A DNA stretch of 64,000 nt from Oceanispirochaeta sp. (GTDB taxonomy: Bacteria > Spirochaetota > Spirochaetia > DSM-2461): contig CAXXXD010000004.1 in NCBI GenBank assembly GCA_963663385.2, positions 800,001 through 864,000 on the forward strand, given 5' to 3'. The number at the start of each line of letters is the position of its first letter. The first letter of the stretch is position 1. Both the position numbers and the translations under genes were made by a program. The notes under the pieces were generated by a model that was given only the letters and a program-made list of their open reading frames with translations, had not been told where the DNA came from and made no database searches. Of the stretch, positions 18,087 to 57,560 are shown piece after piece.

Positions 18087-18219
18087 TTGTTCATCCTTCC
18101 GTGAGTCTTTCCATTATAGTATGAGAGGCGTTCAGGATAAACATAAAAAGCAACAGAAACAATAAAAGAATTCAGTTTATGTTTATACTCTGTTCATATT
18201 TAGTTGTATAGTATTAATC

Positions 18220-18921
18220 ATGACGAGAATACTGGTTGCAGAAGATGAGAAGAAAATTAACGATATGATTTGTGACTATCTGGAGGCGCTGGGATTTGAA
18301 ACCGATTCCGCTCCGGATGGGCGGGAAGCCCTGAAACAGTTCCGGAAGAATCCCCCGGATCTTGTCCTTATGGATATTATGATGCCTGTTCTGGATGGTA
18401 CGGATGTCCTCCGGGAGATACGGAAGGAGAGTCGTGTCCCTGTAATAATGGTAACGGCCAGGGCAGATGAAGGGGATAAGGTCCTGGGGCTTGAACTGGG
18501 TGCGGACGATTATATAACCAAGCCTTTCAGTATGAAAGAGATGGCCGCCCGTATCAGAGCGGTTCTCAGACGGGCTGAGCCGGTTCCGGGTCCGGATGGA
18601 TCCGCAGCTGAAGAGGAACCAGTCTCTCTCCGGGAATTAACCCTCGATCCGGTCAAGAGGAGTGTCCGTATCGGCGGGAAGTCTGTGGAAATGACAGCCG
18701 CCCAGTTCAGTATTCTCCATAAGATGATTCGAACACCCGGCAGGGTCTATACCCGGATGGATCTGCTCAAGTCTTTTCAGGAGGATCCCTATGAGGGGTA
18801 TGAGCGATCGATTGATGTACATATCAAAAATATCCGGAAACTCATAGAGTCCGATCCGTCTCATCCCGGGTATATACAGACCGTATGGGGTGTCGGGTAT
18901 AAAATGAAGGAAGAAGAGTGA
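18220..18921 (+). CDS. OmpR/PhoB family response regulator
   Basis: REC (LMDIMMP, GADDYITKPFS) plus winged HTH (RSIDVHIKNIR, IQTVWGVGY). Confidence 0.95.
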   Translation: MTRILVAEDEKKINDMICDYLEALGFETDSAPDGREALKQFRKNPPDLVLMDIMMPVLDGTDVLREIRKESRVPVIMVTARADEGDKVLGLELGADDYITKPFSMKEMAARIRAVLRRAEPVPGPDGSAAEEEPVSLRELTLDPVKRSVRIGGKSVEMTAAQFSILHKMIRTPGRVYTRMDLLKSFQEDPYEGYERSIDVHIKNIRKLIESDPSHPGYIQTVWGVGYKMKEEE

Positions 18922-20336
18922 AGTTCTCCCTTTCGTTAAAACTGGTGTTTCTTATTGCCGGCACTATCCTGATCAGCAGTCTGGTTACAATTGTGCTGGT
19001 TAACTCCTACTCATCCCGCCGGTTCAAAGGGTACGCTCTGCAGCGTGATATCAATATTGCCCTGACCATCGCCGGATACCTTACCGATGCGGCGGAACAG
19101 GGACAGCTGGAAGAAGCCGTTCAATCCTTCTCCCTGATTCAGAACACTCCGGTTCCCGCCATGAACAGGGCTCCCGGAATGATGGGAGGCGGGCGCATGG
19201 GAATGAGACAGGATGAACAGCGGATCGCACCTGTCCCCTTTGTAATCGCCGATGAATCAGGCCGCATCCTCAGAAAGAACTTCCCCGATGTTGAAGATCA
19301 TAAATTTCATCTCTCCAGAGAGACTGTTTCAGAAGGGGTTCTGTATTATGATCAGAACCATCAGCCGGCCGGCTATGTACTGGCCGGTTCCATGATAGGA
19401 GGAAAACTGTCTGAAAATGAAGCTGTTTATCTGAAATCCCTGTCATCGGGTATCCTGTTTTCCTCCTTCCTTGCCTTGATTCTGGCATGTCTCATTGGTC
19501 TGGCTGCTCTCGGCAGGATTCTTAAACCCCTCAAATCCCTGAACGAAGGTGTCCGTCAGTTAAGCCGTGGAAACTACTCCTGTCAGGTCGAGAACCCCGG
19601 GAGCGGGGATGAAATCAGTCAATTGGCCGAAGGATTTAATGAAATGGCCCGCTCCCTGCAGGCTTCCGAACAGTGGAAGAAACAGATAATTTCCGATACG
19701 GCCCACGAACTGCGCACTCCTGTAAGTCTGATCATGGGGAATCTGGAAATGATGCTGGAAGGGGTTTATCAGGCAGATGAAACAAGATTGCGTTCTCTTT
19801 ATGATGAAAGCGCTCTTCTGGCAGAACTGATACAGGATCTGCATGAACTTTCAAGCGTTGAATCATCCATGACCAGCCTGGAGAGAGAGCCTTTTGAGCC
19901 GGATACCCTGCTGCGGCTCAGTGCAGAGGGATTCAAGGCGGTCTCGCGGGATAAGGATCTTAAGCTTGTGGTGGAGGCCGGCTTCGGGAGGTCCTGGAAC
20001 GGGGACCGCAGAAAGATTCAGCAGGTTATTAAAAATCTCCTGTCCAATGCAGTGAAGTTCACTCCTCCCAGGGGGACTATTTTTCTGCGATCCTACCAGT
20101 TGAACAGGGAGCTTGTCATTGAGGTGGAGGATACGGGACCGGGGATTCCGGAAGAAGAGAGAAGCAGAATATTTGACCGTTTCTACAGGATGGACAGGTC
20201 CCGTAACAGGAAAGACGGGGGGGCCGGTTTAGGGCTGGCTATCAGTAAAGCCATAGTAGAACTGCATAACGGAACCATTGGCGTGTACCCGGGAGAGAAG
20301 GGGGGAGCCCTTTTCAGGATAAAATTATCGATTTAA
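18918..20336 (+). CDS. HAMP-containing sensor histidine kinase (BaeS-like)
   Basis: two TM segments, HAMP (DEISQLAEGFNEMA), AHELRTP, NLLSNAVKF, DTGPGI, GAGLGLAI. Confidence 0.95.
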   Translation: MKFSLSLKLVFLIAGTILISSLVTIVLVNSYSSRRFKGYALQRDINIALTIAGYLTDAAEQGQLEEAVQSFSLIQNTPVPAMNRAPGMMGGGRMGMRQDEQRIAPVPFVIADESGRILRKNFPDVEDHKFHLSRETVSEGVLYYDQNHQPAGYVLAGSMIGGKLSENEAVYLKSLSSGILFSSFLALILACLIGLAALGRILKPLKSLNEGVRQLSRGNYSCQVENPGSGDEISQLAEGFNEMARSLQASEQWKKQIISDTAHELRTPVSLIMGNLEMMLEGVYQADETRLRSLYDESALLAELIQDLHELSSVESSMTSLEREPFEPDTLLRLSAEGFKAVSRDKDLKLVVEAGFGRSWNGDRRKIQQVIKNLLSNAVKFTPPRGTIFLRSYQLNRELVIEVEDTGPGIPEEERSRIFDRFYRMDRSRNRKDGGAGLGLAISKAIVELHNGTIGVYPGEKGGALFRIKLSI

Positions 20337-20343
20337 CATAATT

Positions 20344-20376
20344 CTTGACAGGAACTTCATGAAAACTTAACAGAAC
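20344..20376 (+). promoter_or_regulatory. 11-bp-period direct repeats, candidate OmpR-family binding sites
   Basis: CTTGACAGGAA CTTCATGAAAA CTTAACAGAAC followed by TATATT/TATTAT. Confidence 0.4.
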
Positions 20377-20452
20377 CGGTTTATATTATCCCCATCAAGT
20401 AGCTGAATGCATACAAAAACAGGGTCAAACATTGAAAAAATGCCTGACTTTA

Positions 20453-20481
20453 TTGACTTTTAGTCATGAGATTATTATATT
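20453..20481 (+). promoter_or_regulatory. sigma70 promoter for candidate sRNA
   Basis: TTGACT-N17-TATATT; the -35 sits inside palindrome TGACT-TTT-AGTCA. Confidence 0.6.
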
Positions 20482-20487
20482 TCAGGT

Positions 20488-20663
20488 ATTAGAGACGGTA
20501 TTTGCTGCTGTTCCAAGTTTTCCCTCCTTTTCTTGGCAGCAGTTAAAGATAAGGTAGGATTTGTTGTTAACTTATTCTATCGGAAGAAGAGCTTGATTAA
20601 CTTTTTTTCCATTTTGCTTTTGGGCCCCTGCAGTTTCCTCCTTTTCTGCAGGGGCTTTTTTTT
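20488..20663 (+). ncRNA. candidate sRNA with two anti-SD (CCUCCUUUU) hairpin loops
   Basis: promoter upstream, several hairpins, intrinsic terminator with T8, no credible + strand ORF. Confidence 0.6.
20624..20663 (+). terminator. intrinsic terminator
   Basis: GCCCCTGCAG-loop-CTGCAGGGGC followed by TTTTTTTT. Confidence 0.85.
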
Positions 20664-20767
20664 ATCCAAAATTATTTTCGCATCAGTTCTTACATTTGTA
20701 AAGGAAAAAAGATAAAATATTCCCGCTAGGTGTTTTAGTACACAGGGCGGGAATAAGAAAGGAAGAA

Positions 20768-21484
20768 TTATACAGGAAGAAGACTCATAACAAGACCGAT
20801 CAAGCCCCCGAATACACCGCCCCAGAGGACCAGCCATCCCAGGTGCTTGCGGATCATATCCTGTATTATTTCTTTAACCATCCCGGGAGTCAGTTCTTCC
20901 AGGCGTGTAAAAACAATATTTTCCACTTTTGAAATAATGTCTTCGGCAGCGGTTCCTGTATCAATCGCGGAGGCAAGGGTTTTGTGAAATTCAGGGGTGG
21001 CCGTTTCCGTCAGGATAACTTCCCTGGTTTTCTCCTTGAAAGGAGCTCTGAATCCCTCAATAACCGAGGCCCCTCCGAACATCCCCAGCATCCCTCCAAA
21101 GGAGGAGGTTAGAATCGTTTCACTTAGCCCATCAAAAATCCTGTCATAGTTTACAGCTTCAGCTGCTGCCCTGAAATCTACTTTTGCCGTCAGAACACCT
21201 GCCTCATCATTCATAATGCGGGAAACATTCTCTTCTGTAAAAAACTGATCCATTATCATCTGATGGATCCCTTTTTTAAAATCCTCAAAATGGAGGGGGA
21301 TGACGCCGGAACCATAAAGGCCGGGTACTCTTTCAAAAAGCATATGGATAGCCAGCCAGTTTGTTACGGCTCCGGAAAGGGCAAAGAATCCCATAGACCG
21401 GATCTGTTCCTGAAACCAGGGGCTGACATATCCTGCTGCAACAACCACAAGGGTAAAAAGGGTTGTCATACTGCTCATATTCAT
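20768..21484 (-). CDS. DUF445-family membrane protein
   Basis: FALSGAVTNWLAIHMLFE...GSGVIP; C-terminal HLGWLVLWGGVFGGLIG. Confidence 0.85.
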   Translation of the reverse strand: MNMSSMTTLFTLVVVAAGYVSPWFQEQIRSMGFFALSGAVTNWLAIHMLFERVPGLYGSGVIPLHFEDFKKGIHQMIMDQFFTEENVSRIMNDEAGVLTAKVDFRAAAEAVNYDRIFDGLSETILTSSFGGMLGMFGGASVIEGFRAPFKEKTREVILTETATPEFHKTLASAIDTGTAAEDIISKVENIVFTRLEELTPGMVKEIIQDMIRKHLGWLVLWGGVFGGLIGLVMSLLPV

Positions 21485-36701: not shown

Positions 36702-38057
36702 ATGTCCCCAGTTTCAGATAAACCGCACGTTCTGTTAATTAATCCTCCCATCTATGATTTTGCCCTTTACGATCTTTTTCTCAAGCCCTATGGACTGCTT
36801 AGAATCGGCCGCTGGCTGGAAAAATCCGGATATGAAGTGAGTCATCTGAATGCACTGGACTACAGGGATGAGCTTAGTCTGGAGCAGTTGGGTGCCCCCC
36901 ATCGAAGAAAAGACGGTACAGGGAAGTTTTTCAGACAGGAGCAGCCCTATCCGGATACTCTTGTTAAAATCCCCCGGAAATTCGCCCGTTACGGTATTCT
37001 GGAGGAGAGCATCTGCAGCCGTTTGAATGCTTTGGGGAGAGATCCGGATCTTATCCTGATTACTTCCGGGATGACCTACTGGTACCGGGGAGTGCAGGAG
37101 GCGGTTAAGCTGTGCAGGGAGGCTTTTCCTTCCGCTCCCATCGGGATCGGCGGGATTTATGCCACCCTTATGCCTGATCACTGCAGGCAGGTATGCGGGC
37201 CTGACTTTGTGACGAAAGGGTCTGTCTGGCCGGGGATTATCCCCGAGCTTGAGAAAAGGAGGCTGCCGGTTCCCGATGGCCCTCCGGGGCTGGATATTAT
37301 GAGGAACGATCCAGTCTGGCGGGACAGTGCGGTTTTGCGGTTAAACGAGGGCTGTCCCTTTCACTGTGACTACTGTGCCTCCAATCTTATCAGTCCCCGC
37401 TTCAGTTCCGGGCAGGTCTCTGAGGTGATTGATATGGTTGCATCCCTCTATAGGCGGTGGGGAACCAGAGACTTTGCCTTTTATGATGATGCTCTTCTGG
37501 TTAACAAACAGGAGGTCCTTGTCCCTTTTCTGGAGGAGATTATCCGACAGGGACTGCCTCTCAGGTTTTACAATCCCAATGCTCTTCACATCCGCTATCT
37601 GGATGAGGAGATCCTGAAACTGATGATGCGGGCGGGGTTCCGGGAAATCAGGATGGGATTTGAGAGTTCCGACGATGATTTTCATGAAAAAAAAGACGGA
37701 AAAGTAACCATGAGCACTTTCGAAGCTGCTGTGGATGCCATAAAACGTTCAGGGTTCCCTCCGGCCAGGGCCGCTGTCTATATCCTGGCCTGTCTGCCCG
37801 GACAACGCTGGGAGGAGGTGGAAAAGTCCATCCGCTACGCGGCCCGTTTCGGTCTGCGCTGCCGGATTGCCCAGTACTCCCCCGTACCGGGTACGGCACT
37901 CTGGGAGGAGAGTCTGAAGGCCAGCCCGCTCCCTCTGGCAGAGGAGCCCCTCTACCATAACAGCACGTTTCTTTCCATGGAGTGGGAGGGATTCACACGG
38001 GACGATCTGGAACGGCTGAAGAGGCTCACCCAGGACCTGTATCAGGGCTCCTTCTGA
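36702..38057 (+). CDS. B12-binding-domain radical SAM protein
   Basis: LLINPP, PYGLL, GGIYATL, GCPFHCDYC, FYDDALL, MGFES. Confidence 0.9.
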   Translation: MSPVSDKPHVLLINPPIYDFALYDLFLKPYGLLRIGRWLEKSGYEVSHLNALDYRDELSLEQLGAPHRRKDGTGKFFRQEQPYPDTLVKIPRKFARYGILEESICSRLNALGRDPDLILITSGMTYWYRGVQEAVKLCREAFPSAPIGIGGIYATLMPDHCRQVCGPDFVTKGSVWPGIIPELEKRRLPVPDGPPGLDIMRNDPVWRDSAVLRLNEGCPFHCDYCASNLISPRFSSGQVSEVIDMVASLYRRWGTRDFAFYDDALLVNKQEVLVPFLEEIIRQGLPLRFYNPNALHIRYLDEEILKLMMRAGFREIRMGFESSDDDFHEKKDGKVTMSTFEAAVDAIKRSGFPPARAAVYILACLPGQRWEEVEKSIRYAARFGLRCRIAQYSPVPGTALWEESLKASPLPLAEEPLYHNSTFLSMEWEGFTRDDLERLKRLTQDLYQGSF

Positions 38058-38060
38058 ATC

Positions 38061-38244
38061 AAACCCCTCTCCCCCTCGGCTCCACTTAATCTCTCTGGAG
38101 GGGAGACATCAATTTTGTTTCCCTCCTTTGGAATAGTTTAAGGGGAGGCAGGGAAAAGCAATACACTAGCCCCTCTCTGGCTTCTCCTTATAGAAGATTA
38201 TAAAGACATTTTCCCCCTCCTCGAGGAGGGGGCCAGGGGGAGGT
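38061..38244. repeat. REP-like cluster of C-rich/G-rich palindromes
   Basis: perfect 20-bp palindrome CCCCCTCCTCGAGGAGGGGG (38213-38232) plus degenerate CCCTCC...GGAGGG arms between convergent genes. Confidence 0.55.
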
Positions 38245-57392: not shown

Positions 57393-57472
57393 AATTCCTC
57401 TCCTGACTGCATGCCTGATCTCTGGTGCATGCAGTATGAAATTTAAAATTCCGGGGAAAGGTTGAGATATGG

Positions 57473-57560
57473 CCTATTTCCCTTCGCCGGCATTACCCGG
57501 ATCAGGTTCAAAGGGTATGATCTCAGGTTCTTATACAAGAACCACCCCCAGAGACGTGCT
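57473..57560 (-). promoter_or_regulatory. TPP riboswitch
   Basis: minus strand reads GGGGGTG...CTGAGATCATACCCTTTGAACCTGATCCGGGTAATGCCGGCGAAGGGAA upstream of thiB. Confidence 0.96.

Follow-up and report, generated by a model that had tools for sequence, protein, structure and literature searches.

The window analysed here is a stretch of 64,000 nucleotides (nt) of an Oceanispirochaeta genome, corresponding to positions 800001-864000 of contig 4; the genome measures 5.3 Mb and is 98% complete. Between the genes of a two-component system and a convergent DUF445-family gene, the window contains an intergenic unit with the layout of a small RNA (sRNA) gene (Table 1). An earlier note on this DNA had proposed a novel sRNA at this place, with two loops directed against the Shine-Dalgarno sequence. 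From comparative sequence analysis, the locus appears to hold a real, conserved and so far undescribed sRNA gene, of a functional kind that is familiar from other bacteria, namely the riboregulators with anti-Shine-Dalgarno loops.

Table 1. Features at and around the predicted sRNA, with positions in the window; hairpin loops stand in square brackets
Feature	Position	Strand	Sequence or basis
Operon promoter	18182..18222	+	TTTATA-N5-TTCATA, 8-9 nt, TATAGT 18207-18212, ATG 7 nt later
OmpR-type response regulator gene	18220-18921	+	Pfam
HAMP/HisKA/HATPase kinase gene	18918-20336	+	Pfam; operon with regulator, 18220..20336
Candidate distal promoter P2	20344..20387	+	CTTGACA ggaa CTTCATG aaaa CTTAACA (20344-20372), 9 nt, TATATT (20382-20387)
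Proximal promoter P1 (sigma-70-type)	TTGACT 20453-20458, TATATT 20476-20481	+	17-nt spacer; 10/12 matches
Predicted sRNA, ~176 nt	20488..20663	+	5' end placed from the position of P1; 3' end at the U8 run
Hairpin 1	20504-20543	+	GCTGCTG-tt-CCAAG [TTTTCCCTCCTTTT] CTTGG-CAGCAG
Hairpin 2	20553-20581	+	Stem variable, loop GUUGUUAAC conserved
Hairpin 3 (middle)	20582-20610	+	DNA arms GGAAGAAGAG/CTTTTTTTCC; 3' arm also given as CUUUUUUUCC
Terminator hairpin	20624-20655	+	GCCCCTGCAG [TTTCCTCCTTTT] CTGCAGGGGC, then T8 20656-20663
Intrinsic terminator, whole feature	20622..20663	+	GC-rich stem of 10-12 base pairs, 12-nt loop, U8
Terminator-like hairpin of the DUF445-family gene	20720-20753	-	TTCCCGC...GCGGGAA, T-rich tail; whole feature 20700..20753
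DUF445-family gene, convergent	20768..21484	-	Pfam; downstream neighbour

A promoter scan of positions 19800-21300 ranks P1 as the top promoter-like site, which agrees with the TTGACT-N17-TATATT promoter of the earlier note. Hairpin 1, the middle hairpin and the terminator with its run of eight T residues are also found where the note had placed them, and a fourth hairpin (hairpin 2) had been missed. Folded as a whole, the 176-nt RNA (20488-20663) is predicted to form the four hairpins with a free energy of -55.7 kcal/mol (z = -3.98), and none of 200 shuffled sequences was as stable.

Two of these hairpins display CCUCC in large, U-flanked loops. The loop of hairpin 1 has 14 nt (UUUUCCCUCCUUUU, 20518-20531) and contains the first anti-Shine-Dalgarno motif, while the terminator loop has 12 nt (UUUCCUCCUUUU, 20634-20645) and contains the second. 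All five 16S ribosomal RNA (rRNA) genes of the genome end in ...GGAUCACCUCCUUUC. Accordingly, both loops copy the anti-Shine-Dalgarno core CCUCCUUU of the organism's own 16S tail, and the mimicry of the 16S 3' end that had been read from the two loops is borne out. Such loops are rare: only 3 of the 292 strict terminator-like hairpins of the genome have a U-flanked CCUCC loop, the sRNA terminator among them. Taken together with the retention of the whole unit in all 11 genomes (11 sequenced species) of this marine genus, this rarity places the loop pattern beyond chance.

The 231-nt region finds BLAST matches in all ten other genomes of the genus, with 75-86% identity, and in none of 14 genomes from other genera of the family. 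Synteny is kept in 11/11 genomes, with the histidine kinase gene upstream and the convergent DUF445 gene downstream of the sRNA; across the genus the neighbouring kinase has an amino-acid identity of 40-58% and the DUF445 protein one of 70-85%. A pattern scan of public genome contigs returned four records, all of them metagenome-assembled genomes of spirochaetes, and two pattern scans of metagenome contigs returned no match.

Within the alignment of the 11 orthologues, the P1 hexamers (TTGACTT and TATATTT) are unchanged, without a gap between them and with the spacing fixed at 17 nt. This bears on the reading of the region as the end of the kinase messenger RNA (mRNA), its 3' untranslated tail plus terminator, or as a piece processed from it, in which the promoter hexamers would be unused. 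The hexamers and their spacing are invariant whereas the sequence just upstream cannot be aligned, and a plain tail would have no need of four conserved hairpins with covarying stems. We consider this reading very unlikely, although two observations suit it. Between the kinase stop (20336) and 20453 there is no convincing plus-strand terminator, so that read-through from the operon, ending at the same terminator, is possible, and similar hairpins with a CCUCC loop close two protein-coding genes at other places in the genome. Even an RNA cut from the 3' tail would be able to act in trans likewise.

The loops are constant too. The loop 1 region AGUUUUCC(C)UCCUUUUCU is invariant apart from the CCC/CC length, and the terminator loop with its flanks, AGUUUCCUCCUUUUCU, is invariant in all 11 genomes. 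CCUCC is predicted to be exposed in every orthologue, with an unpaired probability of 0.61-1.0 in loop 1 and of 1.0 in loop 2. By contrast, the palindrome TGACT-N3-AGTCA, for which the earlier note had suggested a binding factor, occurs in this genome alone and is kept in none of the ten orthologues, and we reject it as a factor site.

Coding capacity shows no such conservation. The 11 orthologues have no open reading frame (ORF) of at least 12 codons in common, in place or in sequence, on either strand. It is therefore highly improbable that the locus encodes or opposes a tiny protein, be it from a small plus-strand ORF or from the minus-strand 13-codon ORF starting with TTG (20516-20475) to which the RNA had been suggested to be antisense. 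Read on the minus strand, each loop does look like a perfect ribosome-binding site (AAAAGGAGG), and in this genome the TTG comes 6 nt after the site of hairpin 1. Nonetheless, the TTG is present in this genome alone and kept in 0/10 of the others, so that we reject the minus-strand ORF, and the orientation given by the U-run, like that of the promoter, is the plus strand.

The stems tolerate change as long as pairing is kept. For example, the outer stem of hairpin 1 reads GCUGCUG/CAGCAG in one case and GCUUCAG/CUGAAG in another. On a plain MAFFT alignment, RNAalifold recovers 29 pairs in hairpins 2 and 3 and the terminator, nine of which carry compensatory changes; hairpin 1 escapes it, since the columns are shifted by a one-letter difference in loop length. 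We built a covariance model with all four hairpins (R1) and realigned the 11 genus sequences to it. R1 scores 147-192 bits at the locus in 11/11 genomes. In the R1-fitted alignment, 92.2% of the cells form a standard pair compared to 50-66% in controls with slid partners, and 14 of 42 pairs are changed on both sides compared to 4-8 in these controls; none of 500 shuffles matched the observed values. The pairs changed on both sides are found in hairpin 1 (helices 1-2, 5 of 11 pairs), hairpin 2 (helices 3-4, 6 of 8 pairs) and the terminator (helix 6, three pairs). Hairpin 3 (helix 5) behaves differently: 7 of its 11 pairs never vary and none is changed on both sides, so that it is conserved in sequence as well as in shape. 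Its loop has the consensus (C/A)UUGAUUA(A/C)C.

The pattern that the earlier note had expected of a covariance model, conserved loops on covarying stems, is thus found throughout the genus. Along with the invariant hexamers, the exposed CCUCC loops and the lack of a shared ORF, it points to a free-standing non-coding unit of about 175 nt, as had been supposed. The generic features of an sRNA gene are present, namely an own promoter, an intrinsic terminator, no conserved ORF and a structure with compensatory changes. Since the unit is conserved and non-coding, has promoter- and terminator-like signals and carries CCUCC in two open loops, its product is likely a small regulatory RNA.

The operon upstream encodes a response regulator, closest to the NCBIfam models YycF, RpaB and MtrA, and a kinase, closest to BaeS; every one of these matches scores far below the cut-off of its model, and the two proteins are accordingly not equivalogs of any named system. 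On the other side, the DUF445 gene has its own terminator-like hairpin, so the sRNA unit sits between two gene ends. This hairpin was read from the sequence, having been skipped by the terminator scan with its loop of more than 8 nt. Another terminator-like hairpin lies on the minus strand directly upstream of P1 (20424-20448) and might stop antisense read-through from the DUF445 side.

The operon promoter has the same layout in all 11 genomes: TTYAYA-N5-TTYAYA, 8-11 nt, TAnnnT, and an ATG 6-9 nt further on with no Shine-Dalgarno sequence. From this arrangement, the regulator mRNA is probably leaderless. The earlier note had held that leaderless mRNAs in the window would be immune to the sRNA. 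The leaderless-type start of the regulator gene stands in 11/11 genomes, whereas immunity to the sRNA is conjecture.

The spacer from the kinase stop to P1 holds three direct repeats of 11-base-pair period and, after them, a -10 box; together they make up the candidate distal promoter P2, which may be a second, regulator-dependent promoter. Its layout (hexamer-N5-hexamer-N9-TAnnnT) is that of pho-box promoters. The same layout occurs in the same place in nine of the 11 genomes and went undetected in the other two; since this pattern was drawn up once the sequences were known, its shuffle control is too favourable to it. The half-sites of the operon promoter (TTCAYA) and of the spacer (TTCACA/TTGACA) are alike. 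The two-component operon is possibly autoregulated, and the link proposed in the earlier note, control of the sRNA by the adjacent two-component system, is plausible.

At the Rfam gathering score the window holds a TPP riboswitch alone (57461-57559, minus strand, 68.9 bits). No Rfam family reaches threshold at the sRNA locus, in line with the novelty claimed for it. A permissive search of positions 20300-20800 (up to E = 10) gave 18 weak matches, all sub-threshold and carried by the terminator hairpin, with LhrC (29.6 bits, gathering score 110), Spot 42 and atoC RNA (23.1 bits, gathering score 50) at the top. Among the papers listed in the literature searched, none was a report on small RNAs of the genus or on anti-Shine-Dalgarno sRNAs in spirochaetes. 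To our knowledge, almost no riboregulators have been described in free-living spirochaetes.

RNAs with comparable loops are described in other phyla. LhrC1-5 of Listeria monocytogenes carry UCCC in loop A, in the linker and in the terminator loop; the loops and the terminator loop bind the ribosome-binding site of lapB, and all LhrC copies need the LisRK two-component system (PMC4132741). The sRNA shares with LhrC a CU-rich motif in both a 5' hairpin loop and the terminator loop, as well as the existence of related copies. While expression of LhrC depends on an OmpR-type envelope-stress system, the sRNA adjoins a two-component operon whose control over it is only proposed. The motifs differ (UCCC in LhrC and CCUCC in the sRNA, which has UCCC only in loop 1 of four genomes), and so do size and shape (~110 nt with two hairpins compared to ~176 nt with four). 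With a score this far below the gathering score, the sRNA is not a member of the LhrC family (RF00616). The same holds for atoC RNA (RF01733), whose weak match covers 20566-20663: it has a terminator-like hairpin with CCCUCCU in the loop, as the sRNA does, but is filed as cis-regulatory, whereas the gene downstream of the sRNA is convergent.

In the Cuckoo/CcsR/NfeR RNAs (alpha-r14) of Alphaproteobacteria, hairpin loops each hold CCUCCUCCC, every CcsR RNA having two hairpins with an anti-Shine-Dalgarno loop; there are several copies or relatives per genome, and they are stress-linked (PMC8034643, PMC3927594). Like the sRNA, they combine several hairpins of variable stem with the same anti-Shine-Dalgarno motif in the loops (PMC8034643, PMC3927594). 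As far as these sources describe them, however, their motif is CCUCCUCCC and not the U-flanked CCUCC of the sRNA (UUUCCUCCUUUU or UUUUCCCUCCUUUU), they adjoin DUF1127 genes where the sRNA adjoins a two-component operon and a DUF445 gene, their promoters are of the RpoHI/HII type where that of the sRNA is sigma-70-type, and the phyla differ. No DUF1127 gene was found beside the sRNA among ORFs of at least 40 amino acids, the neighbours being a response regulator, a histidine kinase, the DUF445 protein and an ankyrin protein. The Rfam model of Cuckoo/CcsR is absent from the matches at the locus, both up to E = 10 and at the gathering score.

The csRNAs of streptococci (CiaRH regulon) have anti-Shine-Dalgarno complementarity and are driven by an OmpR-family regulator, with the CiaR repeat TTTAAG-N5-TTTAAG placed ten bases from the -10 box (PMC3091779). 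The same hexamer-N5-hexamer layout is found 95 nt upstream of the sRNA in 9/11 genomes (PMC3091779 for the csRNA repeat). Here, however, the distal repeat reads CTTCAYR-N4-CTTRACA instead of TTTAAG, and P1 has an ordinary TTGACT -35 box. Furthermore, the csRNA sequences complementary to the Shine-Dalgarno and AUG lie in the linker between two stem-loops, whereas CCUCC of the sRNA lies in loops, and the 11-genome alignment contains no conserved CAU in the sRNA linkers. Finally, RsaE/RoxS and S. aureus RNAIII pair with ribosome-binding sites through exposed C-rich motifs, for which Hfq is unneeded in Firmicutes (PMC4409812, PMC4132741). They carry CCCC/UCCC motifs, come from other phyla and have no Rfam match at the sRNA locus. 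Analogy with all these RNAs is what speaks for the trans-acting translational repression that the earlier note had suggested for the sRNA.

Within the genome, the other two terminators with a U-flanked CCUCC loop lie in tandem on the plus strand of contig 4, at 685099 and 685385. They belong to two candidate sRNAs (684978-685135 and 685260-685422, loci L048 and L077) that have the same UUUCCUCCUUUU-loop terminator and occupy the gap between two minus-strand genes, one for a HEAT-repeat protein and the other for a GNAT/HATPase protein. Counterparts turn up in all genomes of the genus as second R1 loci scoring 31-50 bits. The second tandem candidate opens with U-run-UGUAAC and a hairpin, as do many RNAs of other Spirochaetia families. 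Between the two candidates (contig 4 ~685140-685290) lies an inverted repeat, GGTTAACAACAGG ... CCTGTTGTTATAA, the first arm of which is the exact complement of the hairpin 2 loop GUUGUUAAC; this may be chance or mark a pairing partner.

The hairpin recurs twice more, with weaker T-runs, at the ends of an E1-dehydrogenase/transketolase-like gene and of a sulfatase gene; these copies may belong to 3'-tail-derived RNAs with the same loop. Both genes end in a near-identical 50-nt tail, GTAGCTTCTGGCCCCGGGG TTCCTCCTTTT CCCGGGGCC (contig 4 ~418250-418320 and ~433080-433150).

Outside the genus, R1 finds no match at E <= 1e-3 in 27 genomes of other genera of the family, several of which are only 71-90% complete; the sample of the order consists of the same 38 genomes as that of the family. 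In an even sample of the class Spirochaetia, R1 matches 18 of 147 non-genus genomes with 34-48 bits. CCUCC is present in the terminator loop of 16 of these 18 matches, and 13 of the predicted RNAs contain it at least twice. A tight type of ~115-135 nt is formed by eight of the 18, which come from two families; it has three hairpins: hairpin 1, a small middle hairpin and the terminator. Hairpin 1 of the tight type has the loop GUUU(U)CACCUCCUUUC, in which UCACCUCCUUUC is identical to the 12 final letters of the 16S tail, and the terminator loop reads UUUCU(A)ACCUCCUUUC.

A second model, R2, was built from those eight RNAs of two other families alone. At E <= 1e-5 it matches 59 of 151 genomes of the class sample, that is 4/4 from the genus and 55/147 others, the 8 training genomes included. 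Its sole match in the genome studied here is the sRNA locus (contig 820490-820667, 39.8 bits, E = 1.5e-6). The terminator loop carries CCUCC in all of 20 further R2 matches from 13 families, and in 16 of them CCUCC is found once more upstream. This second copy typically reads ...CAUCG ACCUCCUUUU GAUG... right before the terminator. Loci L080-L117 thus comprise at least two further types with mimics of the rRNA tail, both absent from Rfam: the tight type and a more widespread one, which ends in ...CAUCG ACCUCCUUUU GAUG UU CCCCUCAGGG UUUUAACCUCCUUUU CCCUGAGGGG U-run. In a phylum sample of 151 genomes, R2 matches solely the genome studied here and two training genomes, with none in other classes. 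Searched against Rfam, the 18 related loci match no family at E <= 0.01 except for LhrC, once and below threshold.

Judged by these sequence matches, the sRNA is part of a wider, undescribed Spirochaetia set, defined by a GC-rich terminator loop with (A)CCUCCUUU and usually a second copy of this motif upstream. Terminator loop and upstream copy alike are present in the sRNA.

The window also holds, at ~38040-38150, one of four copies of a structured repeat of ~110 nt; the others are at C1:203154(-), C1:169524(-) and C2:61752(+). It has a long outer stem, CCCCTCTC...GAGAGGGG, and the inner hairpins ATCTCCCC-GAAG-GGGGAGA and CCCTCC-TTTG-GAGGG, and has no Rfam match at the gathering score.

Taking the locus as a whole, we favour, with moderate confidence, a conserved non-coding promoter-to-terminator unit that gives rise to a ~176-nt sRNA, whose two open CCUCC loops would pair with Shine-Dalgarno sites and likely block ribosome binding. 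Transcription would start ~7 nt past TATATT (~20488) and stop at U8. Each loop could then open a loop-to-single-strand contact with GGAGG ribosome-binding sites, as the loops of LhrC and Cuckoo/CcsR do, and this pairing would hinder 30S binding. Having two loops might add avidity, or might let two sites or two mRNAs be bound. The sRNA would act without Hfq: a search of the 98%-complete genome gave CsrA but no Hfq, so that chaperone-independent loop contact, as in Firmicutes, is the likelier mode. Expression may rise through the repeat-bearing P2, which lies 95 nt upstream and could be driven by an OmpR-type regulator, possibly that of the adjacent operon; such control is the weakest step of the scheme.

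Several points weigh against this model. The start, end, strand and abundance of the RNA are deduced from the DNA sequence, as are its transcription, its pairing, the repression and its regulation. The structure counts come from the R1-fitted alignment, which is biased towards structure, and the 11 genomes, being related, are not independent of one another. The favoured model does not explain the conservation of the hairpin 3 sequence and of the hairpin 2 loop. Concerning P2, a matrix made from the 11 operon-promoter repeats gives the spacer site 10.2 bits, a score that 1730 genome positions reach or exceed, which leaves the assignment of P2 to the neighbouring regulator statistically unsupported; the strict repeat pattern has 4 sites in the genome compared to 1-6 in shuffles. 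The likeness of the RNAs across families may moreover reflect convergence on a terminator with this loop and not common descent.

Targets are a further weak point, because being complementary to a universal motif leaves specificity unexplained. No target stood out in a duplex-energy ranking of 4919 GGAG-plus-start sites (a crude count), and only ~27 sites have at least 10 nt of contiguous complementarity, the longest having 12 nt. The top four extended matches fall on a permease-like fragment, a BatD-like protein, sigma-54 (rpoN) and an FMN-binding protein. The rpoN site, GGAGGAAACU then UUG, was rejected as a conserved target, since the match is kept in only ~2/11 genomes.

This outcome of the target searches would also suit a different role, in which the sRNA is a decoy of the 16S 3' tail and binds a protein that recognises this tail rather than mRNAs. 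Candidate partners would be a maturation nuclease, a methylase, a ribosomal or initiation factor, or an anti-Shine-Dalgarno-cleaving toxin. The loops do match the rRNA tail beyond CCUCC, with CCUCCUUU here and with UCACCUCCUUUC (12/12 tail letters) in loop 1 of the RNAs from two other families; still, in the loops of the genus the CA found before CCUCC in the rRNA is missing, and no candidate protein partner is encoded next to the sRNA. The CcsR RNAs do have a protein ligand as well, the small CcaF1 (PMC8034643), although all characterised RNAs with such loops act by pairing, within what the parts consulted of the two reports cover (PMC4132741, PMC8034643). Altogether, we regard a decoy as unlikely and retain pairing with Shine-Dalgarno sites as the preferred role of the loops.

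A bolder version of the pairing model, which we judge quite unlikely, is that the sRNA is a general mimic of the 16S tail. Once induced, it would compete for Shine-Dalgarno sites genome-wide and tilt translation to leaderless messages; the two-component operon, leaderless in all 11 species, would escape and, if it drives P2, close a self-reinforcing circuit. If true, much of the class Spirochaetia would use this device, its loops reproducing as many as 12 letters of the rRNA tail.

The locus is a clean example of an sRNA gene under strong conservation whose two seed loops are redundant, next to a two-component operon that is conserved and apparently leaderless, in a genus that has cultured members. 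It also opens the way to a set of RNAs, spread across the class, which copy the sequence by which the ribosome docks on mRNA. This set could enter RNA family databases, Rfam 15 being without a matching family, and genome annotation. Should the loops act generally and not on a few targets, they would bear on the balance between Shine-Dalgarno-led and leaderless translation.

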